A stretch of DNA of 64,000 bases from Patescibacteria group bacterium (GCA_041662565.1 JBAZSE010000001.1:129084-193083), one strand, 5' to 3'. Positions 10,786 through 38,758 are shown, counted from the stretch's first letter. Notes: generated from the sequence alone by a model not told the origin. Program-made: numbers and translations.

Positions 10786-12015
10786 ATGGATTTTCAGGAA
10801 TTCAATAAAGCATACGAAAAGATACTATTAACCGCTGATTCGCAGAAGGCCATGCAGTTATTAACTTTGCTTAATAAAGGCGGATTTAATGTTTCGGCGG
10901 ATAAAGTAGTTATTTTAAAATGGATTGCTTTAGACCGTTTATCTGATCGGGAAATTTTAGAATTATTCCAAAATTATTTTAAAGAAGGTTTAGAGTTGGA
11001 ATTTTATGATTTAAAAGATCAGGTTAGAAATAAATTTCTTACTAGCGTGCCTGAATCCAAGCGTGATGATTATAAAAAAGAAATACTAAAAGCCATTAGC
11101 AATAATCAGCAAAAAATCAGCAGCCAAAATTATTTAACTGGCAATAATCAGTCTGTTGCAAATTCCATTGGCGTTTGGCTTAAAGATTATCTTGTTTTTG
11201 GTGGAGCGGAACCGTTGACCAATATTAAGGAATTAGAGTTTTATAAGTCAAACAAAAATTGGGGCTTATTAAATAATCAACAAAGGGAACAGTTGCGTTT
11301 GATGTTTAACTTAGTTGAATGGCTTAAGCATTCCAATTTTTCTTTACGAGGCGATTCTGAACCGGCATTTTTAAATTATGACGGAGAATATTACGGCATT
11401 ATTGACGGCAGGGTTTATAAGGCAAAAGATTTAATTGATGATTTGTCTTTAAGTTATTTTGCTCAAATTTCTGGAAACCAAAGTAATGCTTTACCAAAAA
11501 CATCGTTTTCCATAAATCCTCAAATTTTACGTTCTCGTTACCAAGAAATTTTAAAGCAATTATTGCCTGCTAACGGCGTTGCAAAAAAACCTGCCAGCCA
11601 TGAACCGGAGGTTTTATTAAACCAGCTTAATAATGATTTGGCCTTACGCGATGCCGGTGCTGTGGTTGCTGATCTGGAAAATTTAATCCAGTTAAAAGGT
11701 TTGTTAAAATTGTTAAAGAGCAAAAACTTTTCCAGTGATTTTATAATTTATTTAGAAGCCCATTTGGGCATGGGGCTTGAAGATCAAGCTACCCGCTTAT
11801 CTCCAGAATCTTTATCTTTATTTTTGCAGTTTTTACTGATTAATAAACTTCAACTTAGTTTGGAGCAGTCGGCAGTTATCGGATTATATTTGGCTAATGT
11901 TTTAGCCAAGCAAAATCAGCGGGAGTTTTTACCCATTGCCTACTGTGATTTATCTTCAAACACCTTTAAATGGCGGGAAGTGATAGGGGAGAATGGGAAG
12001 TTGAAGTTTAAGTAG
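10786..12015 (+). CDS. Hypothetical soluble protein (409 aa), translationally coupled to the VirB6-like gene
   Basis: Long ORF starting 4 nt after the upstream stop. No TM segment and no recognisable motif. Confidence 0.5.
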   Translation: MDFQEFNKAYEKILLTADSQKAMQLLTLLNKGGFNVSADKVVILKWIALDRLSDREILELFQNYFKEGLELEFYDLKDQVRNKFLTSVPESKRDDYKKEILKAISNNQQKISSQNYLTGNNQSVANSIGVWLKDYLVFGGAEPLTNIKELEFYKSNKNWGLLNNQQREQLRLMFNLVEWLKHSNFSLRGDSEPAFLNYDGEYYGIIDGRVYKAKDLIDDLSLSYFAQISGNQSNALPKTSFSINPQILRSRYQEILKQLLPANGVAKKPASHEPEVLLNQLNNDLALRDAGAVVADLENLIQLKGLLKLLKSKNFSSDFIIYLEAHLGMGLEDQATRLSPESLSLFLQFLLINKLQLSLEQSAVIGLYLANVLAKQNQREFLPIAYCDLSSNTFKWREVIGENGKLKFK

Positions 12016-19806: not shown

Positions 19807-19807
19807 T

Positions 19808-21268: not shown

Positions 21269-21318
21269 CACTTATGTCTAAAATTTTATATCTTTGGGAT
21301 TTGGCCGACACATGATTT

Positions 21319-21897: not shown

Positions 21898-21914
21898 CAA
21901 TTAACCATAAGTAT

Positions 21915-23417: not shown

Positions 23418-23421
23418 TAAT

Positions 23422-24432
23422 ATGGAAAAAGAACAAAATTTAGGCCAAGTAGAACTAGCTAATGAAGCTTCCATTGAGTCCGAAGCAAAGCCACGCTATC
23501 AGATTTATATTACCAGGCATGCCGAACGCCTGCCGTCCGGCGAACTTACTCCGGAAGGCATTGCACACGCCAAGGCCAAAGGCGAGGCCTTTAAAGATGT
23601 GGAAGTGTTAAAGCAATACGCCAGCGATCATCCCAGTGGTCGGGCTTATGAAACTGCCGAAAATATTGGCGGTCAGGCTAATGTAACTTCATTGCAGACC
23701 GACGAGCGTTATAAAACCAGAAAGGTTAAGGGTATTCAGTACGATCAGCTCCCGCCTAACGTTCTTAAAGACGCTAAATTGTTGATTGAGGGAGCGACTT
23801 TGGCTGAAATTTACCAAGAACACGTTGAATTGGCCGCTTTAATCGACGAGGCAATTGCCAATGACACAACGGGCGCGATGATAAAAAAAGACGTCAGCGG
23901 TCAGCCGATGGTGGATATAGAAAAGCTGCCTAAGGATATTCAGTTAAAAATCGGACCAATCAGGCAAAAACATCAAAAAGAGGGTTTTCAACAGGTAATT
24001 GAAAATCCAGAAGCAGTTAATAATTTGGCCAGTGATTTATCGCATCAGCTTATTGAAAAACAAGAAATTTTAGCCAGGTATGCTTCCGGAAGAGAGAAAA
24101 AGAAAGTTACTACTAAAAAAGATGTAGTGATTAATATCAACACTCATGGTTTATTTGCCGAATCATTACTTAAAACAGCGGGTATTTTTGTGCGTGCCGA
24201 CGGTACGGAAATTCACGGAATTGCTGACCTGGATACACCGGAGTTTGGCGGCTATATTCAGCCGGCCGAGTCGATTATTTTGGATTTAGGCATTGATCCT
24301 AATAACACGCCCGAACGCATTCCAGTTATTTTTGAAGGCAGGCAAATAAAAGGGCGTGTTTATCTTGATAAATCAAAATTACAAGCGCTCGATCAAGTCT
24401 ATCGTTTAGCGCATCAGAGTGATAGAGAATAA
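23422..24432 (+). CDS. Hypothetical protein, possibly of the histidine-phosphatase (PGAM-like) superfamily
   Basis: N-terminus 'IYITRHAERLPSGELTPEGIAHAKAKGE' resembles the RHG ... LT ... G core, but the canonical G and N residues are missing. The call is weak. Confidence 0.3.
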   Translation: MEKEQNLGQVELANEASIESEAKPRYQIYITRHAERLPSGELTPEGIAHAKAKGEAFKDVEVLKQYASDHPSGRAYETAENIGGQANVTSLQTDERYKTRKVKGIQYDQLPPNVLKDAKLLIEGATLAEIYQEHVELAALIDEAIANDTTGAMIKKDVSGQPMVDIEKLPKDIQLKIGPIRQKHQKEGFQQVIENPEAVNNLASDLSHQLIEKQEILARYASGREKKKVTTKKDVVININTHGLFAESLLKTAGIFVRADGTEIHGIADLDTPEFGGYIQPAESIILDLGIDPNNTPERIPVIFEGRQIKGRVYLDKSKLQALDQVYRLAHQSDRE

Positions 24433-24474
24433 AAAATCAATAAATTTTTATTAATTTTTGACCGGTTAGAGGAA

Positions 24475-24530
24475 GAACTCTGGCCGGTTTTAAAATATTG
24501 TAAGAAAACCCATTTTTGTGTTATAATTAG
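24475..24530 (+). promoter_or_regulatory. Weak terminator hairpin followed by an extended -10 promoter (TGtTATAAT at 24519-24527). This is upstream of the PPDK_N gene and so upstream of the T4SS operon
   Basis: GACCGG ... CCGGTTTT hairpin at 24468-24490, then 'TGTTATAAT', 28 nt ahead of the ATG at 24556. Confidence 0.5.
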
Positions 24531-24555
24531 TCATGAAATATGGTTTTTAAAAGTT

Positions 24556-25524
24556 ATGAACACCTTTGTTTTACCCTTTTCCAAAATAAATAAAAAAAGC
24601 GTGGCAATAGCCGGAGGCAAAGGCGCTTCGCTCGGAGAAATGACAACCGCAAAACTGCCTGTTCCGCCAGGATTTGTGGTTTTAGCCAGCACTTTTGATC
24701 AGTTTTTAAATAATACCCCTCCGCCAGTTGGGTGTGGGCAGGATTTAAACGTTTATATCGAAGCGGAGTTAAAAAAAGTTAATCATCAGGATGTTAGTTC
24801 GGTTGATAAGGCATCGCATGTTATTCAGGATATGATTCATAAGGCAACGATGCCTGTTTCAATGGCAGAGGCCATTGTTAAAGAGTATAAAAAATTAAAA
24901 ACCAAGTGGGTGGCAGTCCGTTCATCGGCTACTGCGGAGGATTCTTCAATTGCCTCCTGGGCAGGCGAGTTGGACACTTTTTTGTTCATTGACGATAAAC
25001 ATTTGGTAGAAGCGGTAAAAAAATGCTGGGCCAGTTTATTTACTCCACGCGCCATTTTTTACAGGTTTGAAAAAAAATTGCATAAAACAGCGGTGAGTGT
25101 GGCTGTAGTGGTTCAACAAATGGTTGATTCTCAAATTTCCGGCGTGGCTTTTTCGGTCCACCCGGTTACTAAAGACAAAAATCAGCTGATTATTGAAGCC
25201 GGCTACGGTTTGGGTGAAGCTATAGTTTCGGGCACCATTACGCCCGATAGCTATGTAGTCCATAAAAAAGAAGGTACAATTTTGGATATTAATATTTCCA
25301 AGCAGGAAAAACAGATTATTTTAAAAGCAGGGGGGGGTTCGGTTTTAAAACCTGTAGCCAAGTCAATTCAGGAAAAACAAAAATTAACTGGCAAACAAAT
25401 TATTGAATTGGCCGAAATTGTTAAAAAGATAGAAAAACATTACGGCAAACCCCAGGATATAGAATGGGCCTTATTTAAAAATAAATTTTATATATTGCAG
25501 TCCAGACCAATTACTACTCTATGA
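24556..25524 (+). CDS. Stand-alone PEP synthase / PPDK N-terminal ATP-binding (ATP-grasp, PPDK_N) domain protein
   Basis: 'AIAGGKGASLGEM', 'LPVPPGFVV', 'AVRSSATAEDS', 'GVAFSV', 'EAGYGLGEAIVSG' and 'IEKHYGKPQDIEWA' are collinear with the PpsA N-domain. No His or TIM-barrel domain follows. Confidence 0.85.
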   Translation: MNTFVLPFSKINKKSVAIAGGKGASLGEMTTAKLPVPPGFVVLASTFDQFLNNTPPPVGCGQDLNVYIEAELKKVNHQDVSSVDKASHVIQDMIHKATMPVSMAEAIVKEYKKLKTKWVAVRSSATAEDSSIASWAGELDTFLFIDDKHLVEAVKKCWASLFTPRAIFYRFEKKLHKTAVSVAVVVQQMVDSQISGVAFSVHPVTKDKNQLIIEAGYGLGEAIVSGTITPDSYVVHKKEGTILDINISKQEKQIILKAGGGSVLKPVAKSIQEKQKLTGKQIIELAEIVKKIEKHYGKPQDIEWALFKNKFYILQSRPITTL

Positions 25525-26783
25525 CAGCAAATAGTTTACAATCTACTAATGATGAAATCCTGGTTATGGATGAAACCGGCCAGTTTCAGGTTTTATCTAA
25601 TGGCGAGCTAAAACCTTTTAATGGCGCTTCTTATCAAACAATTGGTAATGAAGTTGAGGCGACCGAAGAGAAATTACAGCCGATTTTGCCAATGGATACA
25701 GGTTATGAAGAAAAAATGATCCAGCCCCCGCCTCCTGCTTTATATAAACAAACTTCCAGTTTTTATTTTCATCCCGAAGATGAAGAAGAAGCTGCCAAAC
25801 ATAAAGCCAATATACCGGCATCTGGTCCGCAAAAAAAATATTCTTTGGATAAAATCGTTGCCAAAATAGTTGAAAATTATAAATTAACCTTAACGCCCGA
25901 ATTAAACAACAGATTAAGGTCATTGGTTTACAGTTTTTTGCGCGATCGTCGGAGCGAAGCCGATGCCAAGGGTTTGCTGGAGCGGCCGGTTACCGAAGCC
26001 GGTTTGGATTTTGAAAACGGCTTGGCGGAAAATTTATTGGAATTTTTAAAGGAAATTAAAGGTAAGATTTTAACAGCCGGCGGAATAGTGGTTGACGAAA
26101 ACCAGGAGGCGCCTCAAGTTGCTGTTGGTAATATTTCTTCGGTTTCATTGCCCGAAGTTAAAAAGGCCATGCCTGTTGAACTGCCTAAAGATAAGCCGGT
26201 GGCACCAATCCAGCCGGAAGTAAAAATTGAACTGCCAACAAGCCGGCCAACTCCGATTATTAAAACCGTTTCGGATGCTGTTTCTTTAAATCAAGTTGAA
26301 AGTCGTGTGCCCTATGTAACAGAGCCCTTGGTACAGCGCCAGCCCTTGCCTGATTTGCCAGTTGGGGCTTTTAAGCCGTCTATGCCCATTTACACCAAAA
26401 TGGCTCGGCCCGAAAAGCAAGGCGCCAGCCGGATTAACGATATTAAAAAGGATTATAAGCTGGTTGGGCCGGTAGAAGAGTTATCCATATTAACCTTGGA
26501 AACTTTTAGAAGATTGGGCGCTACTACCCAGGAAAGAGTTCAAAAAATCATGAGCAAAATAGATTTGCTAAGCAAAGATTCTTTGGCTAAAAAATCTTTA
26601 GGAATTTCGGCTTGGCGCACCAGTTCGTTATACAAAATGTATGTTTCTTTGGGGCATGCTAGCATGGAGCATAATTTGGATTTAGCAGGCGTAATTAAAG
26701 AATATTCCGCCCAAGGCCAAGAAATTTTAACCATGGAAGAGTTTAATGCCATTACCGATTTAAATAAGCAATTAAGATTCTAA
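25521..26783 (+). CDS. Hypothetical protein (420 aa) with a Pro-rich central region. It forms ATGA and TAATG overlaps with its neighbours
   Basis: ORF with operon-style overlaps on both sides. No recognisable motif. Confidence 0.5.
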   Translation: MTANSLQSTNDEILVMDETGQFQVLSNGELKPFNGASYQTIGNEVEATEEKLQPILPMDTGYEEKMIQPPPPALYKQTSSFYFHPEDEEEAAKHKANIPASGPQKKYSLDKIVAKIVENYKLTLTPELNNRLRSLVYSFLRDRRSEADAKGLLERPVTEAGLDFENGLAENLLEFLKEIKGKILTAGGIVVDENQEAPQVAVGNISSVSLPEVKKAMPVELPKDKPVAPIQPEVKIELPTSRPTPIIKTVSDAVSLNQVESRVPYVTEPLVQRQPLPDLPVGAFKPSMPIYTKMARPEKQGASRINDIKKDYKLVGPVEELSILTLETFRRLGATTQERVQKIMSKIDLLSKDSLAKKSLGISAWRTSSLYKMYVSLGHASMEHNLDLAGVIKEYSAQGQEILTMEEFNAITDLNKQLRF

Positions 26784-27241
26784 TGCGCCAATTTACCGTT
26801 CCTCAATTTATTGATGTGGAAGATAAAATCATCGGCCCGATTACCGTTAGGCAGTTTGTGATTTTAATTGTCGGCGGGTTGTTTATATTTTTGGAATACA
26901 AGCTTTCCGATATCACCTTTTTTTTATTCATCGGCATCCCAACAGCTTTGCTGTTTGTGATTTTTGCTTTTGTTAAAATTAACGGAGTGCCTTTTCATTA
27001 TTTTTTATTAAATGTCGGCCAAACCTTTAAAAAACCGGCTTTGCGGGTTTGGCAAAGAACCAGTGCTTCATTTCACCGCCAAGAAAAAGCTGATACAAGT
27101 GTTCAAGCGGCCATAGCACCTTATGTTGCCCGCTCTATGGATAAATCCCATCTTTCCGAACTGGCTTTATTAATTGATACCGGTGGTGTTTATCAGGGCG
27201 AAGGCAGGGGCCAGGATGCTAATTTTAAATTGGAAATTTAA
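26783..27241 (+). CDS. PrgI-family (VirB3-like) small membrane protein of a type IV secretion system
   Basis: 'FTVPQFIDVEDKIIGPITVRQF' followed by two TM helices is typical of the PrgI family. It lies immediately upstream of the VirB4 genes. Confidence 0.7.
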   Translation: MRQFTVPQFIDVEDKIIGPITVRQFVILIVGGLFIFLEYKLSDITFFLFIGIPTALLFVIFAFVKINGVPFHYFLLNVGQTFKKPALRVWQRTSASFHRQEKADTSVQAAIAPYVARSMDKSHLSELALLIDTGGVYQGEGRGQDANFKLEI

Positions 27242-27251
27242 ACAAATCGTT

Positions 27252-27935
27252 ATGTCAGAAAATAAAAATATCGGCAGTAAAATAAAAACCCCTACTCAAA
27301 AATATTTGGATATCGCCGAAATTAAAGACGATACGGTTATTTTGCGCGATGGCGGTTTGCGTTCGGTTTTATTGGTTTCTTCCATTAACTTTGCCTTAAA
27401 AGGTGAAGATGAGCAAAATGCCATTATTCAGGCCTATGTTGGCTTTTTAAATTCTTTATCATTTCCCTTGCAGATCGTGATTCAATCCAGGAATTTAAAT
27501 ATTGACGGTTATTTAACCAAACTGGAAACCTTGGAAAAAGAGCAAACCAATCAATTGTTGCGCATGCAAATTGCCGATTATCGGACATTTTTAAAAGAAC
27601 TTTTGGATCTGGGAGAAATTATGACTAAAAAGTTTTACGTGGTGGTGCCTTACAGCGGTTCCAGTAGGGAAAAAAAGAAATTTTGGGAAATGTTTTTGGA
27701 TTTATTCGCTCCGGCTAGAACCATCAGCTTAAGCCAAAAAAAATTCAACCGCTCTCGCGAGGAATTATTCAAGCGTTTGGATTTTGTTATTTCGGGGCTA
27801 TCCAGCATTGGTTTACACGCTGTACCTCTTGATACCCAAAGTTTGATTGAGCTTTTTTACAATACTTATAATCCCGAAGTAGCCGATGCTCAGAAAATGA
27901 CCAATATCAATAAATTAAGAGTAGAAGAGAATTAA
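27252..27935 (+). CDS. Orphan VirB4/PrgJ N-terminal-domain paralog (227 aa). It has no ATPase domain
   Basis: 'LDIAEIKDDTVILRDGGLRSVLLVSSINFALKGEDEQNAIIQAYVGFLNSLSFPLQIVIQ' matches the CagE/TrbE/VirB4 N-domain pattern. The start is taken at the first ATG after the PrgI stop, since the ORF-track start at 27174 overlaps prgI. Confidence 0.55.
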   Translation: MSENKNIGSKIKTPTQKYLDIAEIKDDTVILRDGGLRSVLLVSSINFALKGEDEQNAIIQAYVGFLNSLSFPLQIVIQSRNLNIDGYLTKLETLEKEQTNQLLRMQIADYRTFLKELLDLGEIMTKKFYVVVPYSGSSREKKKFWEMFLDLFAPARTISLSQKKFNRSREELFKRLDFVISGLSSIGLHAVPLDTQSLIELFYNTYNPEVADAQKMTNINKLRVEEN

Positions 27936-28049
27936 TGCAGTAATCCCTTGAATTATGATGTAGGCCTTGAGCGCAGTCGAAAGGCCGATGCTCAAAAGAT
28001 GGCTAATATTACCAAACTACGGGTAGAAGAAAATTAGAAATTAAAAATT

Positions 28050-29912
28050 ATGGCATTTAAACCAACACAACTTACTTCCAACTCTTCGGCCAATCTTGGT
28101 CCGGCCAAACTTAAAGCCCAAGAACAGAGGGAGATTTTAGAAGCGGAAAAAATTTACCGCCAGGGAGTAACTTCGGTTAAAGATTTAATCGCCCCGGCCA
28201 GTTTAAAAGTGGAACCCCGGTTGGTAGAACTTAACGGCAAATATCTTACTACCTTGTTTGCCATTAATTATCCTCGTTACATTAATGTTGGCTGGTTTTC
28301 GCCGATTATTAATTACAGTTCGCCTTTGGATATTTCCATGTTTTTTTACCAGGTAAAAACGGAAATTATTTTAAAGCAATTAAAAAATAAAGTTGGCGGT
28401 TTACAGGCCCAGTTAATGGCTGATTCCGAAAAAGGTGCTCCTAGGGATCCCTTGCGGGAAACCGCTTTAAGGGATATTGAAACTTTGCGGGATGATTTAA
28501 CCCAGGGCACCGAAAGGTTTTTTCAATTTGCATTGTACGTTACCATTTACGCCGATACCAAAGAACAGTTGGAATTGTTGGTGGAAAAAATGGAATCGTT
28601 ATTCGGTTCCAAACTGGTTTATTCCAAGCGGGCACTGTATCAGGCCGAACAGGGTTTTAATTCCTGCTTGCCTTTGGCAAACGATGAATTGCAAATTTCT
28701 TTTAACATGAATTCTTCGCCAGTGGCTTCTTCTTTTCCGTTTATTTCTTCGGAATTAACTTCCAATGACGGTATTTTATATGGCATTAATCGGCATAACA
28801 ACAGTTTGATAATTTTTGACCGATTTAGTTTGCAAAACCCCAATTCTGTGGTGTTTGCCACGGCAGGTGCCGGCAAAAGCTACGCTATTAAGTTGGAAGT
28901 GTTGCGCAGCATGATGATGGGCACCGATGTGATTATTATTGATCCCGAAAGCGAATACAAATATTTGTGCGATGCTGTTGGCGGGGCCTACATTAATATT
29001 TCCCTTAATTCCGAAACCAAGCTTAATCCGTTTGATTTGCCTAAAAATGTTTTGGGCGACGATGCCAAGCCGGCCGATATTATTCGGAGCGCGGTTATAA
29101 CCTTAAAAGGTTTGATTCGGCTGATGCTGGGGGATTTAAGCCACGAAGAGGATTCTTTGGTTGATCGAGCGCTTTTGGAAACTTATGCCAAAAAAGATAT
29201 TACCCCTCAAAGCGATTTAACCAATGTGGAACCGCCGTTAATGAAGGATTTTGAAGAAGTTTTATCGGGCTTGGCCGGTGGCGAATCATTGGTTATGCGT
29301 TTGCGCAAGTATACTACGGGTACTTTTGCCGGCTTGTTTAATAGCCCGACCAATATTGATGTTAAAAACCAGTTGATTTGTTTTTCGGTTAGAGATTTAG
29401 AAGACGAGTTAAAACCCATTGCCATTTATTCCATTGTTAATTACATCTGGACGGTCGTAAGGTCGGAACTTAAAAAAAGGATTTTGGTTATTGATGAGGC
29501 CTGGTGGCTGATGCAACGGGAAGATAGCGCCAAATTTATTTTTGCGCTGGTTAAAAGGTGTCGTAAATATTATTTGGGGGTAACTACCATTACCCAGGAT
29601 GTTAATGACTTTTTAAGTTCACCCTATGGCAAGGCCATCATTACCAACTCCTCGCTGCAATTATTGTTAAAACAATCTCCGGCAGGCATAGAAATGATTA
29701 AAAACACTTTTATGCTAACGGAAGGCGAAAAATACCTGTTATTGGAAGGCAATGTGGGAGAGGGCATCTTTTTTGCCGGCGATAAACATGTGGCCATTTT
29801 GGTTAAGGCCAGCTATACCGAAGATCAGATAATAACTTCCGATCCCAAGCAGTTATTGGAAATTGAAGCTGCTAAAAAAGAGTTTGATGCCAGTTTAACT
29901 AATCAACAATAA
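28050..29912 (+). CDS. virB4: VirB4 / TrbE / PrgJ-type type IV secretion ATPase
   Basis: Walker A 'ATAGAGKSYAIK', 'IIIDPESEY' and 'VIDEAWWLM' (Walker B) follow a VirB4 N-domain. Total length is 620 aa. Confidence 0.88.
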   Translation: MAFKPTQLTSNSSANLGPAKLKAQEQREILEAEKIYRQGVTSVKDLIAPASLKVEPRLVELNGKYLTTLFAINYPRYINVGWFSPIINYSSPLDISMFFYQVKTEIILKQLKNKVGGLQAQLMADSEKGAPRDPLRETALRDIETLRDDLTQGTERFFQFALYVTIYADTKEQLELLVEKMESLFGSKLVYSKRALYQAEQGFNSCLPLANDELQISFNMNSSPVASSFPFISSELTSNDGILYGINRHNNSLIIFDRFSLQNPNSVVFATAGAGKSYAIKLEVLRSMMMGTDVIIIDPESEYKYLCDAVGGAYINISLNSETKLNPFDLPKNVLGDDAKPADIIRSAVITLKGLIRLMLGDLSHEEDSLVDRALLETYAKKDITPQSDLTNVEPPLMKDFEEVLSGLAGGESLVMRLRKYTTGTFAGLFNSPTNIDVKNQLICFSVRDLEDELKPIAIYSIVNYIWTVVRSELKKRILVIDEAWWLMQREDSAKFIFALVKRCRKYYLGVTTITQDVNDFLSSPYGKAIITNSSLQLLLKQSPAGIEMIKNTFMLTEGEKYLLLEGNVGEGIFFAGDKHVAILVKASYTEDQIITSDPKQLLEIEAAKKEFDASLTNQQ

Positions 29913-29913
29913 T

Positions 29914-30492
29914 ATGTCCCGTAAAAAAATTATTATCATTGCCATTTCCGTTTTGGTTTTAGCCGGCTTAGCTGTTGCTTTATTATTAATGGACGGTTCT
30001 TGGTTTGCGCCAAAAGTTGCTCCTGTTAACAATAATAATAACGCTACCACTACCTTGCCTCAGGTAAATAAAGGCGCAATACCTTTGGTGCCAAAAATTA
30101 CCTTAAAACCGCAAGAGCAGGCAGTTAGCACGGTGGCGCGCAATTTTGCCGAACGTTTTGGTAGTTATTCTACCGATAGCCAAATGGTTAATTTGGATGA
30201 GCTGGGCTTGATTTCCACCGCTAAAATGCAAACAACGCTTGTTTTGTTAAAAACGGAATTAAAAAAACAATATGATCCGGCAAAGGGTTTTTACGGCGTT
30301 TCTTCCAGGGCTTTAAAAATAGCTATTAATGATTTGGATGAAAATCAAGGTACGGCACAAGTAACTGTTAGTTTACAGAGGTCGGAACGCAAGGATGGCG
30401 CCGTTGATTATGTTTATTATCAAGATGTTGTGTTATCGTTAGTTAAATCAGGCGATGTTTGGCTGGTTGATAGCGCTAAATGGCAAGAATAA
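29914..30492 (+). CDS. Bitopic membrane protein (N-terminal TM plus a ~150-aa globular domain), possibly VirB8-like
   Basis: A single TM 'IIIIAISVLVLAGLAVALLL' and a compact alpha/beta C-domain. Context only. Confidence 0.3.
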   Translation: MSRKKIIIIAISVLVLAGLAVALLLMDGSWFAPKVAPVNNNNNATTTLPQVNKGAIPLVPKITLKPQEQAVSTVARNFAERFGSYSTDSQMVNLDELGLISTAKMQTTLVLLKTELKKQYDPAKGFYGVSSRALKIAINDLDENQGTAQVTVSLQRSERKDGAVDYVYYQDVVLSLVKSGDVWLVDSAKWQE

Positions 30493-30496
30493 TAAT

Positions 30497-31306
30497 ATGG
30501 CCGTTGCCCGTAAATTAGATCCGAAAGAAGAACAAGAATTAGCCCGTTTGTTGGCAGTGGTAAAAAAGGCAGACAGGAACAAACCTGCCAAAAGATTGGG
30601 TTCATCATCTGGCAATTCCACCAAACCGTTAACTCCCATGAATCCATTGGCTCAATCATCCGGATTTGATTCAGAGAACGACCAAGAAGAAATGGGTGAT
30701 CAAGAAAACACGGATCAATCCCCAGTGGGTGAATCTGAACAAGCAGGGAATCGTCCACAAGGCAGACAAGCAGCAGTTAGATTTGTTAATAATGCTCGGA
30801 ACCTAATTGAAAATAACGATTTGCCTGCTTTTGGTGATAAGAAGTTTAGGGAGGACTATGATAATTTTAAAAAAACCTCATTTGGACTAAAAACGCCTGC
30901 TGGCGCCATTAAAGAAGGTATAAAGCTGGGTTTAAGTTTAAGGCGGGGTTTGGCCGAAGGAGCATTTAGCTCATTTTTACTTATCTTATTGTTGGCCGTG
31001 ATTAAGGACTTATGGGATGTTTTGGATGTATCCACTTTAACAGGCGATATAGTTGGTTTGTTTATCACTACCACTGTGCTGGTGGCTTTATCTTTCCAGG
31101 GCACCTGGTTTAAGCGCTGGCTGATTAAAAAGTATTTAAAAAAATATATTTTGGCGATTTTGGCGGAACTGATTCCCGGGGTGGCTATTTTTCCTACTTT
31201 TACCATTATGGTGTTAATAATTAAATTCCAAAATGATAAAAGAATGGGTCAGCAAAAATTAATGGTAGAAGATTACGAAGAAGAGCTGGCTAAGTTGAAA
31301 GTTTAA
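30497..31306 (+). CDS. Membrane protein with an acidic low-complexity N-terminus and C-terminal TM helices
   Basis: Start taken at the ATG at 30497, because the ORF-track start at 30455 overlaps the upstream gene. Hydrophobic segments run over aa 165-250. Confidence 0.45.
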   Translation: MAVARKLDPKEEQELARLLAVVKKADRNKPAKRLGSSSGNSTKPLTPMNPLAQSSGFDSENDQEEMGDQENTDQSPVGESEQAGNRPQGRQAAVRFVNNARNLIENNDLPAFGDKKFREDYDNFKKTSFGLKTPAGAIKEGIKLGLSLRRGLAEGAFSSFLLILLLAVIKDLWDVLDVSTLTGDIVGLFITTTVLVALSFQGTWFKRWLIKKYLKKYILAILAELIPGVAIFPTFTIMVLIIKFQNDKRMGQQKLMVEDYEEELAKLKV

Positions 31307-31323
31307 GGGGGATGAAGAATAAT

Positions 31324-31361
31324 GAATAAGGAATAATGAATTTTCAAATTATTCCTTATTC
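31324..31361. promoter_or_regulatory. Perfect 14-bp inverted repeat with a 10-nt spacer, plus an extra direct copy of the half-site. Terminator or operator
   Basis: GAATAAGGAATAAT (31324-37), loop gaattttcaa, then ATTATTCCTTATTC (31348-61). It is followed by CTAATTCCTTATTC, which repeats the TTCCTTATTC core. Confidence 0.5.
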
Positions 31362-31382
31362 CTAATTCCTTATTCTATTCAT

Positions 31383-32632
31383 ATGAACGAACGTTTTAAA
31401 AAAATTATCATAGTTATCCTTTTTGCCGCCGCGGTTTTTACCATGGCTTATCTTATTTATTATTATTTTTTTAAGCCGGTCCAACCGGATGTTTTGCCTT
31501 TAAATAATAATCAAAACCAAAATTTCCCAGGGGGCCAGCTTCCGTTGATTAATTCAGGAGATGTGAATCGCATTGGCAATACCAATGTTAACGGGGCGCT
31601 TCCTAGCATCAGCCAATTGCCCGAAGGCGTAATTATTTCCGAAACAGCCACCGGCGGTTATACCCGGGTTAACTCGATTGGTAGTTCAAAACTTATTTCG
31701 CCCCAGCTTAACAGCAGTGGAGGTTTTAATTATTTTAATTCTGCTGAAGGCCGGTTTTATAAAATAGGCGCCGATGGCACAGCTACCCAGCTTACTGCCG
31801 AACGTTTTTACGCTGTGCAAAAAGTAACTTGGTCTCCGGGCGGGGCCAGCGCTGTTTTGGAATATCCCGATGGCTCCAACATTGTTTACGATTTTGCCAA
31901 AAATCAGCAATATAGTTTGCCTAAAGAATTGGAAAATTTTTCTTTTTCTTCCAGCGGAGGCGAACTGGCCGCCTCGGCCATTGGGCAGGGCGAAGAAAAC
32001 AATTGGATAGTAACCGCTAATCCGGATGGCTCCAATATTCAATTTGTGGAACGCTTGGGCGCTAACGCCGATAAGGTGGATATTAATTGGTCTCCCAACG
32101 GCCAAATGGTGGCTATGTACAAAAAAAATGTTGGCACAGACGCGCAAGAATTATTTTTATCGGCCGGAACGAAGAAAATTTTCAATCATTAACCGTTAAT
32201 GGCGGGGGATTTACGGGCAAATGGGCGCCTACAGGCAATAGATTGTTGTACAGCGTTTATCGCCATGATAATGATTTAAAGCCCATTTTACAATCGGTTG
32301 TTGCCGGGGGTGATAATACCGGTTCGAATAATATTGATCTAGGGTTAAACACTTGGCCCAATAAATGTGCTATTGCCAATGATGGTGTTACGGCTTACTG
32401 CGGGGTGCCGGATTATTTGCCAAAAGGCAGCGGCTTGTATCCTGTTTTAGCCAATGATTCCAGTGATATGTTTTATAAAGTTAATTTAGCCACAGGCGAA
32501 AAGTTTTTATTAGCCCAGCCAGTTGGCGAAGCCAGTAGTTATTCGGCTGATAAGGTATTTTTATCTGCCGATGAAAAAACTTTGTATTGGCAGGATGCCA
32601 AATCCGGGCGGATGTATAATATAAAGTTATAG
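31383..32632 (+). pseudogene. TolB-like / PD40 beta-propeller periplasmic protein with an N-terminal TM. It is split by an apparent frameshift near 32120-32175
   Basis: Frame 0 (31383-32192) ends 'NWSPNGQMVAMYKKNVG ... KKIFNH*'. Frame 2 continues 'NEENFQSLTVNGGGFTGKWAPTGNRLLYS' with the same 'WSPxG' repeats. An A8 homopolymer sits at 32121-32128. Confidence 0.55.
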
Positions 32633-32637
32633 TATAA

Positions 32638-33324
32638 TTGTTTATGTCCGATTTAAATCCAAAACAGCTTAATTTATTCATCAAACTGGCTTTGTTAGTT
32701 TTGGTAATTTTTACGATCCTTATTATTGTTCGTTCTTTTTACGGTTCCAAGGCCTTAAAAGATAGCGAAGAATATTTAGCTTCTTTAACTAATGTGGCTG
32801 TGCAAACAAGTGAACCATCCTTAACGGAGCCAATAACCCGGGCCACTGATCCAACTTTAGGCAATGCGGATGCTAAAAATAAAATAGTTGTTTACAGCGA
32901 TTTTCAGTGCCCTTATTGCGCTACCGCCATGCAAGTTTTAGCCCAGCTGTTAAAACAACATCCGATTGATTTATTGATTACTTGGAAGGATTTTCCCAAT
33001 CCCGATCATCCCCAAGCTCAAGGTGCAGCTGTAGTCGCCAGGTGCGCTGCTGCACAAAATAAGTTTTGGGATTTTCATGATTATCTTTATGCCAACCAGG
33101 ATCAACTCGGCCCTTCTTTGTATCCGCAAATCGTCGCTAGTTTAAAAATGGATCTTAATACCTTTAACCAATGCAATGACAATCAAATAGGCCTGCCTTT
33201 GGTTGAAGAAAACTTTACTGAAGCCATGGGCTTGCGTTTAGACGGCACGCCATATTTGTTTGTTAATAACCAAAAATATGTAGGAGCCATTAATGTGGCC
33301 GAATTGGAAAAAATGCTGAAGTGA
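32638..33324 (+). CDS. DsbA-like thiol:disulfide oxidoreductase (thioredoxin fold, CPYC active site) with an N-terminal TM anchor
   Basis: 'VYSDFQCPYCATA' and the downstream 'GTPYLFVNNQ' (cis-Pro region) follow an N-terminal TM helix. Confidence 0.75.
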   Translation: MFMSDLNPKQLNLFIKLALLVLVIFTILIIVRSFYGSKALKDSEEYLASLTNVAVQTSEPSLTEPITRATDPTLGNADAKNKIVVYSDFQCPYCATAMQVLAQLLKQHPIDLLITWKDFPNPDHPQAQGAAVVARCAAAQNKFWDFHDYLYANQDQLGPSLYPQIVASLKMDLNTFNQCNDNQIGLPLVEENFTEAMGLRLDGTPYLFVNNQKYVGAINVAELEKMLK

Positions 33325-33398
33325 GATATAATAGGCATATAACCTAAAGGGTAGATAGTGTATCAATTTTACTCGTTTTACGGCTAAAAACAGCAACT

Positions 33399-35156
33399 AT
33401 GAAATCCACTAAAATCTTATTATTAACTTTTTACTTTCTTGGATTAGGATTCTTAGCTTTGCCTCAAAATGCTATAGCGCAAGACTTAACAGGTCAATGC
33501 TGTGTTTGCATAACTGCCACTGGGGATGTTGTTAATGATACATCCTGCACATTTTATTTAACAGCTGATCAATGTCATGCCAAGAGTACCACTCCTCCCG
33601 ATGTAGGCGAGCAAACAGGAGACATACAAAGGGAGTATACAGCAACAACTTGCAGTTTAGCTGCTTGCTCAAACCCATCATGTCCTGCTTTACCTCAAAA
33701 TCCGCAAGATAGTCAAAGGATTAAACAATCCAATCTAAAATTTATTCCTAATATTTCTATTCCGGGAGCTTCAAAATTTCAACAAGGCGTGGGCACTGAT
33801 GTTACTCAAAGCTTATTGCCCGAGTATATTCAATCTTTGTATAAATTTTTTGTGGGCATTGCGGGAATTTTGGCAGTAGTAATGATTGCCATTGGTGGGT
33901 TAATATGGTTGTTTTCCGGCGGTGATTCCGGAAAAATTACAAAGGCCAAAGAAATAATAGTTGGCGCCATTGTTGGTTTAATTTTGGTTTTAACTTCATA
34001 TTTAATTTTAAATACGATTAATCCCAAGCTGGTCAGTTTTGCACCTTTAGGAGTGTATAAATTTAGTGAATTGCATGTGGGTACTTTTTGCGAGCCAAAC
34101 GAAAGAGTTTTGGTAGATGGCAAGCCAACAGTAGGCAATACTTTAAGATGCGGTCAAAAAGCCACGGTTGAAGGTAGTAATGAATCGTGCTTAGGTTATG
34201 GCTGTCCTAATTATCAAAATGGCGAAGTGTGTTATTTTAATCCAGGTATGCAGGAGGCAAAATGCTTAAGCTGTAATACTACAGATGATGATTTAATGTC
34301 TTTGTATAATATATCTCAAAATGACGCTGGTTGTTCGGCCTTAACGCCGCCTAAAGAGTATCAACCAATTGATCATAAGCAGTTATGTGTTTTTACCGAG
34401 GCTAGTCATGTTGACCCTAATGATGACACTTGTGCCTTAATTGATGTTGATTGTGGTAATGTTAATTCTTGTAGCAGTTATGATGATGCAAAGATAGGGG
34501 ATTTATATTTTGGTCATGGTGTTGGAATAGATTGGGCTGAAAGAAGCCATTTAGAAAGAATTTGTACTAATGACATTAATAATAATCCCAGTAGAACCGG
34601 TATTTGTGAGGCGGAGAATCCTTCTACCGGACAATTTTGGCTGAACGCCAATAAGACCTGTTACATACAAAATGATAGCGATTGCCGAGAAAGAATTGTT
34701 AATCAAGGCGAGCAACAAGTTGTTTCTGGCTGGACATATGATCCTGGTATTCAAGATCAAATGGTTGATGCTTCTGATGATTTAAAACAACTATTAAATT
34801 GTTTAAGGCCTAAATTGGATGAATTTGAAAAACAGCTTAGTCAGCCAGGCAGACCTCTTAAGATCGGTCGGATTTCTTCCATTAGTGACGCTGATTACAT
34901 TGGTAATGTAGGAGCTTGTAAAGTTACACCTAAGCCGGCTAAGTGCGATCATAGTGGAGCTTCATGCCATTATGGAGGAGATCAAAATGACGGTAAATCA
35001 TATGGAGTGGATATTGGCGATGAAGCTAATGGTCAGTATATTGAGCAAGCAGCTTCCGAATGCCAACATGGCTATATGGCTTTAGAGGGTACTCCTGGCC
35101 AACCGGGAGCGCATTATCATATTTCTACAGCTAGTTGTCGCATCCAAGGAGAATAA
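33399..35156 (+). CDS. Cys-rich secreted protein with an internal TrbC/VirB2-like pilin hairpin (two TM helices) and a C-terminal LAS/M15-like metallopeptidase signature
   Basis: Signal peptide present. 'FVGIAGILAVVMIAIGGLIWLFSGGDSGKITKAKEIIVGAIVGLILVLTSY' parallels the pilin domains at 52650 and 54444. The C-terminus carries 'SCHYGGDQNDGKSYGVDI ... AHYHIS', an H-x-n-D ... HxH pattern. Confidence 0.5.
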   Translation: MKSTKILLLTFYFLGLGFLALPQNAIAQDLTGQCCVCITATGDVVNDTSCTFYLTADQCHAKSTTPPDVGEQTGDIQREYTATTCSLAACSNPSCPALPQNPQDSQRIKQSNLKFIPNISIPGASKFQQGVGTDVTQSLLPEYIQSLYKFFVGIAGILAVVMIAIGGLIWLFSGGDSGKITKAKEIIVGAIVGLILVLTSYLILNTINPKLVSFAPLGVYKFSELHVGTFCEPNERVLVDGKPTVGNTLRCGQKATVEGSNESCLGYGCPNYQNGEVCYFNPGMQEAKCLSCNTTDDDLMSLYNISQNDAGCSALTPPKEYQPIDHKQLCVFTEASHVDPNDDTCALIDVDCGNVNSCSSYDDAKIGDLYFGHGVGIDWAERSHLERICTNDINNNPSRTGICEAENPSTGQFWLNANKTCYIQNDSDCRERIVNQGEQQVVSGWTYDPGIQDQMVDASDDLKQLLNCLRPKLDEFEKQLSQPGRPLKIGRISSISDADYIGNVGACKVTPKPAKCDHSGASCHYGGDQNDGKSYGVDIGDEANGQYIEQAASECQHGYMALEGTPGQPGAHYHISTASCRIQGE

Positions 35157-35241
35157 ATTTTATTTTTAAAAATCCTCAATTACTTTATTTTTTGGGGATT
35201 TTTGATTTGCGGAAAAAGCCAAAATCTGTTAATTTTACCCT

Positions 35242-36585
35242 ATGAATTCAACAATCTTTACTTGTTCAAAGTGCGATGGGCAAGCCCTAAAATGGGCTGG
35301 CCGTTGTTTGGAATGCGGTGCCTGGGGTACTCTGACGGAAGGGACAAATAACAAGATACAATCAACAAGGAAAACTCAAAAATCAAATACTAAACCATCA
35401 AACGAGGTGGTGGACTTAACTCAAAACTCAAAACTCAAAACTGGCAATTATCATAAGTTGGTTACCGGTTTTACCGAATTTGATAAGGTGTTGGGAGGCG
35501 GTATTACTCCAGGCAGCTTGATTTTATTGGGTGGAGATCCGGGGGTTGGTAAATCCACCATGGCTTTACAGCTTGCCAGTGGTTTTAAGGAAGAAGTTTT
35601 GTATGTTTCCGCCGAAGAATCAGCCGATCAAGTGTCGGGCCGACTCTCTCGTTTAGTTAAAGGCCAAGGCAGTTTAAAATTTTTAAAAGAAGATGATTTG
35701 GAAACTATTTTAGCCACTATTGAAGATAATCAACCGCAATTGGTAATTATTGATTCCATTCAAACCATTTACTTGGATGAGGTTAAATCTTTAGCCGGCA
35801 GTATTAACCAGCTTAAGGCCTGTACGGTCCGGCTTTTGGAATGCGCCAAAAATAACAATATCAGCATTATTTTAATCGGCCATGTTACTAAAGAAGGCGA
35901 ACTGGCCGGACCTAAAACCACCGAACATTTGGTGGACGTAGTATTATATTTAGAAGGCGATAAATACAAGCAGTATAGATTACTTAGGGCGGCTAAAAAT
36001 CGTTTTGGTTCAACCGATGAAGTGGCTATTTTAGAAATGACTAAAGAGGGCTTAACGGCAGTGGCTAACCCTTCCAAAATATTTTTAGCCGAAAGCCATC
36101 AACAGCCGGGCGCGGTTATTTGCGCCGTCGCCGAGGGCTCGCAGATTTTTTTGGTGGAAGTTCAGGCCTTGGTAAGTAAAACAACTTTTAATTATCCCAA
36201 GCGTTCCAGTTCGGGGTTTGACCAAAAGAGATTGGAATTATTAACCACTATTTTAAGCAAACGAGCTAACATTAATTTGGCTAACTTTGATGTTTATTTA
36301 AATATTGCCGGTGGCTTAACTTTAAAAGAGCCCGCCTTGGATTTGGCTGTTTGCGCCGCGATTAACAGCGCGTATCATGATAAGGTCTGGCCGGCAAAAA
36401 CCGTTATTTTTGGCGAGGTTGGTTTGGCGGGCGAAGTGCGAACTGTGGCCAAAACCAAAGAACGCTTAAAAGAATCTTTAAAGCTTGGGTTTACTAAAAT
36501 TGTTTTACCCTCTTTTGAGGGAGAAATTAAAGGCGTAACGGCAATTAAGGTAAAAGAGGTTAAAGAGATTGCTAAATTATTCTAA
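35242..36585 (+). CDS. radA: DNA repair protein RadA/Sms
   Basis: Zn-finger 'CSKCDGQALKWAGRCLECGAW', Walker A 'GGDPGVGKST', KNRFG motif 'NRFGSTDEVAI' and a Lon-like C-domain. Confidence 0.93.
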   Translation: MNSTIFTCSKCDGQALKWAGRCLECGAWGTLTEGTNNKIQSTRKTQKSNTKPSNEVVDLTQNSKLKTGNYHKLVTGFTEFDKVLGGGITPGSLILLGGDPGVGKSTMALQLASGFKEEVLYVSAEESADQVSGRLSRLVKGQGSLKFLKEDDLETILATIEDNQPQLVIIDSIQTIYLDEVKSLAGSINQLKACTVRLLECAKNNNISIILIGHVTKEGELAGPKTTEHLVDVVLYLEGDKYKQYRLLRAAKNRFGSTDEVAILEMTKEGLTAVANPSKIFLAESHQQPGAVICAVAEGSQIFLVEVQALVSKTTFNYPKRSSSGFDQKRLELLTTILSKRANINLANFDVYLNIAGGLTLKEPALDLAVCAAINSAYHDKVWPAKTVIFGEVGLAGEVRTVAKTKERLKESLKLGFTKIVLPSFEGEIKGVTAIKVKEVKEIAKLF

Positions 36586-38643: not shown

Positions 38644-38758
38644 GGTTTGATTTTATCAGATTTTACTTATAAAAAATAGATGTTCACCCGATGCTTAGTT
38701 GATATTGACAAATAGGCCAAACTGTAATAAAATTCAAACCATCTTCCAGTATAAATGG

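Follow-up and report, generated by a model that had tools for sequence, protein, structure and literature searches.

The 64,000-nucleotide window, the whole stretch of DNA analysed here, comes from a Komeilibacteria-like (ABY1-class) Patescibacteria chromosome on which two distinct gene modules probably meet, a type IV secretion system (T4SS; module 1) and, abutting it, a kinase system (module 2). The joint reading that we favour, and think reasonably likely, is that a conserved non-conjugative T4SS lies beside a split system like rifampin phosphotransferase (RPH), and that the adjacency of the PPDK_N gene to the T4SS is inherited gene order. A chromosomal non-conjugative T4SS cluster of this kind has previously been published for ultra-small Patescibacteria (Quinonero-Coronel 2025; Wang 2023), and the locus is largely ordinary, the odd part being the relation of PPDK_N to its neighbour at the head of the cluster. 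All of the ORFs named in a sequence-only reading of this DNA are present on the plus strand, at or near where it had placed them; the features below are on that strand unless stated.

The VirB4 ATPase (28050..29912; NCBIfam, Pfam) corresponds to the C-terminal three quarters of canonical VirB4. It matches NCBIfam conju_CD1110 at 9.7e-106 over positions 175-733 of 752, its 354.8 bits exceeding the 325-bit cutoff, and Pfam P-loop_TraG at 1.3e-29, with Walker A ATAGAGKS and Walker B ILVIDE. The Walker-motif protein, which the sequence-only reading had allowed might miss the VirB4 profiles, is thus a bona fide VirB4 (CD1110-type, 1e-105, above cutoff). Relatives with 70-78% identity are found in more than 561 species. 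The gene before it (27252..27935) encodes a TrsD/TraC-like protein, equivalent to the VirB4 N-terminal domain in a gene of its own (NCBIfam VirB4_plasma positions 72-240, 4.8e-10; TrsD 6.5e-7), the homologs of which bear PF26593 TraC-like; it is an independent ORF of ~226 aa in about 78 of the 81 related T4SS loci compared for gene order. It had been taken for a VirB4 N-domain paralog, which is rejected, since ORF 27174-27935 covers positions 72-240 and 25-127 of the VirB4 models and the following ORF positions 288-889 and 175-733, so that the two are complementary and not paralogs. Between them, a degenerate copy of the TrsD-like gene's final 53 nt (27984..28036, 79% identical to 27882-27934 in local alignment) explains the long spacer of 114 nt, for which the median in relatives is 13 nt.

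The leading conserved gene of the T4SS core is h420 (25521..26783), encoding a cytoplasmic, Patescibacteria-specific protein of 420 aa in which a disordered Pro-rich linker connects two helical domains, at aa 105-200 and aa 315-420. It shares a TAATG, a 1 nt overlap, with the gene for a membrane protein of 2 TM segments by hydropathy (26783..27241), the proposed PrgI/VirB3-like identity of which is borne out by a Pfam PrgI match of 4.2e-9. The gene 1 nt beyond VirB4 (29914..30492), previously described as encoding a bitopic protein, specifies one in which a linker joins an N-terminal TM helix to an NTF2-like domain. Its AF2 model (pLDDT 83) finds CagV, the PrgL VirB8 domain, TraE, VirB8, and TrwG in a Foldseek search of the PDB (E 1e-5 to 1e-3, probability 1.0), and as modelled the protein has the VirB8 fold; a VirB8-like protein is found in 75 of the 81 loci. 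The next gene (30497..31306) encodes a membrane protein of 269 aa, placed by hydropathy and start codon, with an acidic disordered N-terminal part and then 3-4 C-terminal TM segments. Family profile searches with this protein gave no match, and a similar-sized protein is at the equivalent position in three loci (L081-L083). The hairpin reported after it is present (31309..31376; RNAfold -24.1 kcal/mol), being A/U-rich with a 14 bp inner stem and no clear T-run. Two long gene overlaps were artefacts of over-extended ORF starts, the likely true starts being ATG 27252, ATG 30497, and ATG 32644.

Three further genes complete this run. The first (31383..32632) had been drawn as a beta-propeller ORF, where there is indeed a gene, although it is a single one broken by a 1 nt deletion: tblastn of intact homologs of 412-415 aa, which are one ORF in relatives, changes frame near 32146-32158. 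Once repaired, it encodes a membrane-anchored TolB/PD40-like repeat protein with an N-terminal TM segment and a weak TolB propeller match (1.7e-4, far below cutoff). The DsbA assignment of the second (32644..33324) agrees with Pfam matches to Thioredoxin_4 (1.2e-23) and DSBA (4e-14) and with a CPYC motif; it is a thiol-disulfide oxidoreductase anchored by a TM segment. The third (33399..35156) encodes a VirB2-like pilin-domain fusion with a signal-like N-terminus, a T4SS_pilin domain (Pfam, 1.8e-11) that spans aa 139-206 and has 2 TM segments, and an ectodomain rich in Cys (30 residues). Of its earlier description as a pilin-like LAS-peptidase, the pilin domain stands, but the peptidase comes from a motif alone and has no profile support. 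At the C-terminal end (aa ~440-581) is a conserved Cys/His domain in which H524, D538, H572, and H574 as well as Cys residues are invariant; this domain has 193 cluster representatives, and 66 of the 80 sampled also carry T4SS_pilin. The Cys content of the pilin fusions is 4.4%, against a background of 0.47%, which, with the invariant Cys residues, favours a link to DsbA. Two other proteins start with T4SS_pilin by Pfam, encoded at 52650-54431 (with Big_5) and 54444-63542 (3032 aa; Big_5, TIG, CBM_4_9); the two share 62% identity over their N-terminal 180 aa, and they are probably surface proteins related to the same T4SS. The transcription unit likely ends at a terminator-like hairpin after the pilin-fusion gene (35166..35205; RNAfold, 14 bp stem, U-rich 3' arm), beyond which are RadA (35242..36585; Pfam, a conserved neighbour) and the adjoining RecG (36577-38643, minus strand; Pfam), found in 37 and 40 of the related loci, respectively.

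The genes proposed as an operon at 24556-35156 are there, but the conserved locus is larger and also takes in 92-12015. This begins with a giant protein of the 'c13' family (92..7657; Pfam CBM_4_9, 1.8e-9), which runs to the window edge without an in-frame stop upstream, so that its 2521 aa are a minimum; BLASTP matches it to c13 proteins of 17 related loci, where c13 sits upstream of the T4SS core. A membrane protein of 1040 aa follows (7660..10782; hydropathy, position); its first 345 aa are predicted to cross the membrane about 8 times, and a hydrophilic part of ~700 aa comes after them. It has no match in Pfam, NCBIfam, or PADLOC, while its residues 4-500 share 30-43% identity (E 1e-47 to 1e-70) with large proteins upstream of h420 genes in about 35 loci; topology and position make it a candidate polytopic (VirB6/ConG-like) channel subunit. 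Next is a distal h420 paralog of 409 aa (10786..12015), which BLASTP clusters with 25521-26783. In most loci the order is large TM protein, h420a, h420b, PrgI, with the distal and proximal h420 copies adjacent. Most relatives have their homologs of 92-12015 immediately upstream of h420, and here about 13.5 kb lies between the two, from which comparison this stretch appears to be a part of the conserved T4SS locus moved away by rearrangement.

The core order h420-PrgI-TrsD-VirB4-VirB8like is kept in 80 loci from different species, in which VirB4 is 70-78% identical. No ORF in the window matches the VirD4/T4CP, relaxase, or VirB11 families in profile searches, as had been noted, and the proposed non-conjugative T4SS-like apparatus is supported, with a genuine VirB4 and conjugation functions absent from the window. 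Module 1 (25521-35156 and the displaced 92-12015) is best read as a non-conjugative T4SS that is conserved in the lineage and derives from the MPF-FATA type of Gram-positive bacteria. VirB3, VirB4, VirB8, and polytopic proteins such as 7660-10782 would form a membrane complex inserting or extruding the pilin-domain proteins, the many cysteines of which DsbA would oxidise, and the surface structure would mediate host-cell contact or delivery, not plasmid transfer. Pilin export and a role in host contact are suggested here by analogy with work on the Saccharibacteria, a distant relative.

Module 2 (15444-25524) shows homology, domain by domain, to all three parts of RPH. Five PEP-utilizers (PU) paralogs of ~485 aa (15444-16913, 16897-18354, 18361-19806, 19808-21268, and 21915-23417), with a 192 aa ORF within the block (21319-21897), each carry a C-terminal PEP-utilizers swivel-His domain (Pfam, 4.8e-24 to 3.8e-26). 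NCBIfam RPH-like models match them through the C-terminal 170-250 positions, and the family profile aligns with RPH structures 5hv2/5fbs over chain residues 521-878; for the N-terminal ~165 aa no match was detected. By sequence, the PU paralogs appear to correspond to RPH minus the ATP-grasp domain, and not to T4SS proteins. After a histidine-phosphatase-superfamily gene (23422..24432; Pfam His_Phos_1, 2.3e-6), the like of which, or HAD or acylphosphatase genes, accompanies the module in other genomes, comes a stand-alone PPDK_N ATP-grasp protein of 322 aa (24556..25524; Pfam, 1.7e-96). It covers positions 1-315 of the PEP-synthase and RPH models, and its best 120 database relatives are all of 310-342 aa with PF01326 as the sole domain, which identifies it, as judged from these matches, as the ATP-binding subunit of a split RPH/PEP-synthase-like system. 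PPDK_N would charge the swivel histidine of the five divergent substrate-binding PU paralogs, with phosphatases encoded alongside.

Whether PPDK_N belongs to the T4SS depends upon its two sides. It would be a genuine member of the operon if, alone or with the PU paralogs, it phosphorylated a T4SS component, a secreted substrate, or a small molecule, kinase expression being deliberately coupled to the secretion genes, which we consider unlikely. The claim that PPDK_N heads the operon is partly supported, by a terminator-like hairpin (24460..24491; RNAfold, sequence; 12 bp stem, 6 nt loop, then TTTT; -31.9 kcal/mol for the spacer in total), which in this genome divides PPDK_N from the remainder of module 2, and by the order PPDK_N to h420 in 13 genomes, in several of which opposite-strand genes are upstream, so that PPDK_N is often first of a co-directional run. 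The promoter reported at about 24520 has a counterpart in the promoter-like site TTGTAA-18-TGTTATAAT, with a TG-extended TATAAT (24498..24527; consensus scan), which is a consensus match (10/12, with the TG) of a sort barely above chance, at 47 in the region against 42 expected. The ATGA shared by PPDK_N and h420, a 4 nt overlap, is real, as is the TAATG reported with it, but the overlap from which translational coupling was drawn is not conserved, the gap being 26-151 nt in the closest relatives. On the side of a link to the T4SS, the gap is -26 to +151 nt in 12 of the 13 genomes (in the other, L056, the h420 start is uncertain), and 6 of the 13 have a tight junction, of -26 to +10 nt. PPDK_N is upstream of the T4SS in 11 of 62 informative VirB4 loci and absent in 51. 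The junction is patchy, occurring in at least 4 places on an unbootstrapped NJ tree of VirB4, interspersed with loci without it; a random neighbour would not usually persist to this extent, which counts against PPDK_N being simply a kinase-module neighbour, as do the opposite-strand genes that lie between PPDK_N and the PU genes in at least 5 genomes.

The constant companions of PPDK_N are nevertheless PU paralogs and phosphatases. PEP-utilizers genes (1-7) are present in 15 of 16 PPDK_N contexts, most of which also have genes for HAD, His_Phos, or acylphosphatase proteins; the contig of the sixteenth (L081) ends about 1.6 kb upstream, too close to tell. This company suffices to account for the presence of PPDK_N and argues against its being a T4SS component. 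Indeed, five other Patescibacteria genomes carry the PPDK_N/PU/phosphatase module with no T4SS genes nearby, where what comes after PPDK_N is a PU gene (4 cases; in L085 a PU5 ortholog of 65% identity directly 3') or Rrf2/SOD/Suf genes (L086). Nor does h420 resemble the PU proteins (hhalign probability 0.2%) or have a conserved histidine. PPDK_N is best read as the last gene of module 2, probably cotranscribed with the T4SS core, its place before h420 being inherited gene order rather than T4SS function.

There are two other readings of module 1. The apparatus might take up or export DNA, as ComB does in Helicobacter and Ced in the Sulfolobales, and be functionally tied to the adjacent recombination genes instead of serving as a protein or pilus system, given that RadA directly downstream and RecG alongside are kept in around half of the loci related to this one, that DprA is 9 kb away, that comF/recG/radA adjoin the T4SS in ABY1 (PMC12102498), and that VirB4 weakly matches CedB (3e-13) and CedD (6e-5), far below cutoffs. 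This seems quite improbable, as such similarity to CedB is generic to the VirB4/HerA ATPase core, many related loci lack the RadA/RecG adjacency, there is a terminator-like hairpin between the pilin gene and radA, and a coupling protein, relaxase, ComEC, and DNA-binding component are absent from the cluster, the absence of these proteins being taken by the Saccharibacteria authors as evidence away from DNA transport (PMC10633639). It is very improbable indeed that these genes are the remains of a mobile element, an integrative conjugative element (ICE) in decay, and not a core cellular system. The nearest curated families of VirB4 are the ICE/conjugative ATPases CD1110 and Mbov_0397, and there are one frameshifted gene and one duplicated gene tail; yet the same order is found in those more than 561 species-level genomes, GC is 0.39-0.41 throughout the region without a break, and integrase, relaxase, T4CP, and flanking repeats are absent. 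The flanking genes are conserved housekeeping ones (EF-P, S6, SSB, RadA, RecG, ParAB; Pfam), and the genes are essential in a related class (PMC10633639).

The conserved non-conjugative T4SS most resembles in its description that of the ABY1 class, which adjoins comF/recG/radA (Quinonero-Coronel 2025, Microb Genom, PMC12102498). Both have a VirB4 of a clade related to MPF-FATA, a TrsD-like protein adjoining it, PrgI/VirB3, and VirB2-like pilins near virB4, with no relaxase or T4CP nearby, and both are chromosomal, beside recG/radA; VirB8-like proteins, detected chiefly in ABY1, are present here too. Unmentioned there are the PPDK_N/PEP-utilizers neighbour, DsbA, the h420 family, the TolB-like protein, and the pilin-ectodomain fusions, and the arrangement differs in that the upstream part of the locus has here moved by about 13.5 kb. 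In Southlakia epibionticum (Saccharibacteria), the T4SS and the pilin genes in its cluster are essential, and a role at the epibiont-host interface has been proposed (Wang 2023, Cell, PMC10633639). That system shares Gram-positive-like subunits, cluster pilins, and the lack of a recognisable coupling protein or relaxase, but differs in class, gene order, and accessory genes, having separate pilin arrays and peptidase/lysozyme genes where here there are pilin-ectodomain fusions, DsbA, and the TolB-like protein.

The Trs system of pGO1/pSK41, Prg of pCF10, and CTn2/CD1110-type ICEs likewise have a VirB4 (TrsE/PrgJ/CD1110 type), TrsD, and PrgI/TrsC, and a VirB8-fold protein is common to the Gram-positive conjugative T4SSs (PrgL, 7aed) and this cluster. 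Those systems are on mobile elements and have a relaxase, T4CP, and VirB1-type hydrolase, the conjugation-specific parts being absent from the window, while VirB2-like pilins are found in this cluster and not in them. The kinase module, like RPH (PDB 5FBS, 5HV1-3) and the PEP-synthase-like PigC/RedH, has ATP-grasp (PPDK_N), substrate-binding, and swivel phosphohistidine parts; unlike in RPH, the ATP-grasp part is a separate protein and the remainder is spread over 5 divergent paralogs, where other genomes have 2-7, and phosphatases are linked to them.

All of the ORFs that the sequence-only reading named in this operon are present on the + strand, with the ATGA and TAATG overlaps that it described. 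The Walker-motif protein encoded at 28050–29912 (Walker A ATAGAGKS, Walker B ILVIDE) is VirB4 by profile, its match to the CD1110-type NCBIfam model conju_CD1110 (9.7e-106, 354.8 bits) being above the curated cutoff of 325 bits, and it also matches VirB4_plasma, TraC, VirB4_CagE, and P-loop_TraG. Beside virB4 is a PrgI/VirB3-like protein with two transmembrane segments (Pfam PrgI 4.2e-9, 37.3 bits against a 27-bit cutoff). The CDS at 27252–27935 had been taken for an orphan paralog of the VirB4 N-domain. It does match the N-domain, covering positions 72–240 of 894 (VirB4_plasma) and 25–127 of 752 in two VirB4 models, but virB4 itself covers positions 288–889 and 175–733 of the same models. The two CDSs thus match complementary, non-overlapping parts of VirB4, and the paralog interpretation is rejected in favor of a TrsD-family protein. 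The match to NCBIfam TrsD (6.5e-7), like that to VirB4_plasma, is under the whole-protein cutoff, and the homologs carry the TraC-like PF26593. The split of the N-terminal part from VirB4 is ancestral: an ORF of ~226 aa precedes a VirB4 of ~630 aa in about 78 of 81 loci.

The bitopic protein encoded at 29914–30492 (192 aa) has no match by sequence search, and only a fold search was able to place it. The AF2 model built with 23 homologs (pLDDT 83) has a transmembrane helix followed by an NTF2-like domain, with best PDB matches to CagV, the VirB8 domain of PrgL, TraE, VirB8 of A. tumefaciens, and TrwG (E 1e-5 to 1e-3, probability 1.0), so that it is predicted to have the VirB8 fold. Two membrane proteins, 7660–10782 with ~8 transmembrane segments and 30497–31306 with 3–4, are VirB6-like candidates by topology and position, without a family match. 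The DsbA call is borne out by Thioredoxin_4 (1.2e-23) and a CPYC site. Profile searches of the ORFs in the 64-kb window found no relaxase, coupling protein (VirD4/TcpA), or VirB11, in agreement with the sequence-only reading.

Over-extended ORFs account for the long overlaps at 27174 and 30455; starts at ATG 27252, ATG 30497, and ATG 32644 yield proteins of the lengths found in relatives. The spacer between the TrsD-like gene and virB4 is 114 nt here against ~13 nt in relatives, and within it 27984–28036 is a 53-nt tandem duplicate, 79% identical, of the 3' end of the TrsD-like gene (27882–27934), which still encodes ...ADAQKMANITKLRVEEN*. A 12-bp hairpin followed by TTTT (24460–24491) is present between the His-phosphatase gene and PPDK_N, the stand-alone ATP-grasp gene at 24556–25524, with a promoter-like site carrying a TG-extended -10 (24498–24527) downstream of it. 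A second hairpin is at 31309–31376, and a terminator-like hairpin (35166–35205) is 3' of the pilin gene. Upstream of PPDK_N, Rfam searches found neither a riboswitch nor any other RNA element; the only matches in the window are two tRNAs. One of these, tRNA-Leu(CAA) at 38759–38845, falls within the 5' end of a long TTG-initiated ParA ORF (38699–39787), and the start of ParA must therefore be downstream of the tRNA.

With one genome scanned per species, at least 561 loci with VirB4 relatives were found, from which the best 80 (70–78% identity) were kept. Nearly all of these 80 share the core order h420-PrgI-TrsD-VirB4-VirB8-like, h420 being the first core gene (25521–26783 in the window). The genes that commonly come next are those for a membrane protein, a pilin fusion, the TolB-like protein, DsbA, a second pilin fusion, and RadA, with RecG on the opposite strand. 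In most loci the region upstream of the core encodes a giant protein and a large polytopic membrane protein, together with a second paralog of h420. The homologs of these in the window (92–7657, 7660–10782, and 10786–12015) are ~13.5 kb from h420, the intervening sequence being occupied by the opposite-strand EF-P, S18, SSB, and S6 genes, a methyltransferase gene, and the kinase genes discussed below. The giant protein of 92–7657, a 2521-aa ORF with a CBM_4_9 domain and 11 Cys in its first 200 aa, has no in-frame stop up to the edge of the window and is therefore longer than the window shows.

The window has a GC content of ~40% without a compositional break. Housekeeping genes (EF-P, S18, SSB, S6, RadA, RecG, ParA/ParB, RelA, DprA, Der, and HisRS) are spread over its whole length, h420 is identical to the NCBI MAG protein WCV73_03985, with Candidatus Komeilibacteria as the nearest named relatives, and the relatives of VirB4 are in Falkowbacteria, Kerfeldbacteria, and unclassified Patescibacteria; the window thus derives from the chromosome of an ABY1-class Patescibacterium. 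The possibility of a mobile element was rejected on conservation, composition, and the absence of mobility genes. In some relatives small ORFs of ~120 aa, forming one BLASTP cluster (c9), recur between the T4SS genes (L010, L034, L006, L017, L076, and other loci) in up to 5 copies per locus, a pattern suggestive of a small gene that is mobile or repeated; c9 is not present in the window's cluster.

The proposed beta-propeller gene is one gene that appears as two ORFs, 31383–32192 and 32087–32632, since intact homologs of 412–415 aa align over both. The frame switches near 32146–32158 through a 1-nt deletion in an A/T-rich stretch, which may be an assembly error or mark a real pseudogene. The assignment as a propeller is weak: repeated W/F-SP-x-G motifs are seen, the TolB profile matches 31383–32632 at 1.7e-4 (20.7 bits against a 343-bit cutoff), and Pfam propeller matches reach only E~0.2.

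The pilin-like domain proposed for the last gene (33399–35156) is confirmed by Pfam T4SS_pilin (1.8e-11), which matches two further CDSs, 52650–54431 and 54444–63542. The first encodes a 593-aa Big_5 protein and the second a 3032-aa giant with Big_5, TIG, and CBM_4_9 domains; both start with the VirB2-like domain, and their N-termini are 62% identical over 180 aa. The pilin domains appear to be N-terminal anchor or export modules of very large surface proteins. The protein of 33399–35156 has 30 cysteines, and in related pilin fusions the mean Cys content is 4.4%, compared with 0.47% over all proteins encoded in these loci, which provides a rationale for the adjacent DsbA.

The proposed peptidase part of the fusion fares less well. 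The C-terminal ~140 aa are a domain found in 193 cluster representatives, together with T4SS_pilin in 66 of 80 sampled. H524, D538, H572, and H574 are invariant, and the motif order SCHYGG..AVDFG...HxH, compatible with LAS enzymes, is invariant over 80 homologs. Pfam gave no match at E<=10, and the Pfam tally over the 80 homologs was negative as well; a profile search of the PDB gave no sequence match, and an hhalign comparison with the M15 domain that related pilin fusions carry gave a probability of 0.06%. Because no profile method ties the domain to the M15 or LAS families, a LAS peptidase remains a motif-level suggestion. At the same position in one related locus (L083) there is a pilin fusion with a genuine Peptidase_M15 domain (1.3e-8).

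The 420-aa product of h420 is cytoplasmic, with two confidently predicted helical domains joined by a disordered Pro-rich linker, and has no significant profile or fold match, its two-helical-domain fold being unmatched in the PDB. The family is mostly present as two adjacent paralogs upstream of PrgI (10786–12015 and 25521–26783 in the window), and family-wide conservation is confined to the C-terminal ~125 aa.

Immediately 5' of h420 in the window is PPDK_N (Pfam 1.7e-96), as had been recognized. All three parts of an enzyme like rifampin phosphotransferase (RPH) or PEP synthase are present, split over genes: PPDK_N, the ATP-grasp part, aligns to positions 1–315 of the RPH/PEP-synthase models, and the profile of the PEP-utilizers (PU) family aligns to chain residues 521–878 of RPH structures, the distal substrate-binding and swivel His domains. 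H454 in the swivel domain of one paralog, PU5, is invariant in 24 sequences. The PU paralogs appear to be ancient and functionally distinct, since those in the window are 20–26% identical among themselves but orthologs of PU5 elsewhere are 61–65% identical, one of them lying directly after PPDK_N (L085). This split system (15444–25524 in the window; L082–L091), in which one stand-alone ATP-grasp protein accompanies arrays of 2–7 divergent PU paralogs and linked HAD, His_Phos, or acylphosphatase genes, is conserved across many Patescibacteria. PADLOC found no match of PPDK_N or PU to a defence system. In L088 (873–3907) an AbiEii gene and a PhdYeFM/ParE toxin-antitoxin pair are interspersed in the PEP-utilizers array upstream of PPDK_N.

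The coupling of PPDK_N to the T4SS genes had been considered unexpected. The overlap is real, co-transcription with h420 is plausible in this genome, and the gene order is recurrent. Among the 80 loci anchored on VirB4 (the best 80 of at least 561) PPDK_N is immediately 5' of h420 in 7, and the two genes are likewise adjacent in all three Komeilibacteria-like contigs to which h420 led and in 2 of 8 further contigs found through PPDK_N. The gap is -26, -4, 0, +2, +9, or +10 nt in six genomes and 26–151 nt in six others, the h420 start in L056 being uncertain. Genes on the opposite strand lie between PPDK_N and the PU genes in at least five genomes. Loci with PPDK_N occur in at least four places on the VirB4 NJ tree, interleaved with loci without it; the 62 informative loci comprise 51 without PPDK_N and 11 with it (10 from the automatic count and L023, where tblastn places PPDK_N at the contig edge).

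These observations speak for linkage of PPDK_N to the T4SS; a functional tie is judged unlikely. Of the 16 PPDK_N contexts, 15 have from one to seven PU swivel-domain genes, in most cases alongside a HAD, His_Phos_1, or acylphosphatase gene, and in the exception (L081) the contig stops about 1.6 kb upstream. Five genomes have PPDK_N (62–66% identical) with no T4SS genes nearby, and there it is followed by a PU gene (four) or by Rrf2/SOD/Suf genes (L086). PPDK_N and PU match different parts of RPH-type enzymes. h420 has neither similarity to PU proteins nor a conserved histidine. The simplest reading is that PPDK_N is part of the split RPH-like kinase system, which in some ABY1 lineages has one half of the T4SS neighbourhood on either side of it. 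The gene-order feature is real, and most likely reflects a separate kinase module as neighbour.

The kinase module, for which no description was found in the literature searched, is the most interesting lead. A ~0.8-Mb genome devotes about 9 kb to one ATP-grasp subunit, five paralogs that correspond to the substrate and swivel domains of RPH, and one phosphatase. Should the paralogs phosphorylate different molecules, whether antibiotics or compounds derived from the host, this would bear on the survival of epibionts on their hosts, and the recurrent place of the module in front of the T4SS would be worth testing. That this widely conserved and undescribed module is wired into the Komeilibacteria-like T4SS operon and acts on what the T4SS handles is a long shot; it could, for example, phosphorylate small molecules or proteins that pass between the bacterium and its host cell, thereby activating or detoxifying them.

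On established T4SS biology, the parts present here, conserved as they are and accompanied by no conjugation genes in the window, would work as follows. VirB4, with its TrsD-like N-domain in trans, would dock on PrgI/VirB3 and, with the VirB8-like scaffold and the polytopic proteins, form a translocon in the cytoplasmic membrane. Its likely clients are VirB2-type pilin domains, including that at the start of the 3032-aa giant, which would bear variable, disulfide-rich ectodomains, oxidised by DsbA, to the surface. The function is probably contact with a host cell or delivery to it; a DNA-related role, at which the RadA, RecG, and DprA neighbours hint, is less likely.

The description as a non-conjugative T4SS-like apparatus is right, but such a system has already been published, and this copy adds little: the system has been catalogued in about 2,400 genomes of Patescibacteria, and in one cultured Saccharibacterium it is essential. 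Useful for the annotation of ABY1 genomes are the VirB8 fold of the bitopic protein, the Cys-rich ectodomains fused to pilin domains and paired with DsbA, the conserved cytoplasmic two-domain h420, often in two copies, at the head of the core, and the large polytopic and giant proteins that share the conserved neighbourhood. The Saccharibacterial version, Gram-positive-like and with pilins but without a coupling protein and relaxase, is essential for epibiotic growth (Wang et al. 2023, PMC10633639). Across Patescibacteria, Quinonero-Coronel et al. 2025 (PMC12102498) described this T4SS, whose VirB4 proteins form a sister clade to MPF-FATA and are most often accompanied by TrsD. It has PrgI/VirB3, VirB2-like pilins, and few VirB8 homologs, almost all in ABY1, with relaxases almost absent, T4CP genes far off, and an association with comF/recG/radA in ABY1. 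The T4SS in the window resembles that system in its VirB4, TrsD-like protein, PrgI/VirB3, VirB8-fold protein, VirB2-like pilin, and radA and recG neighbours.
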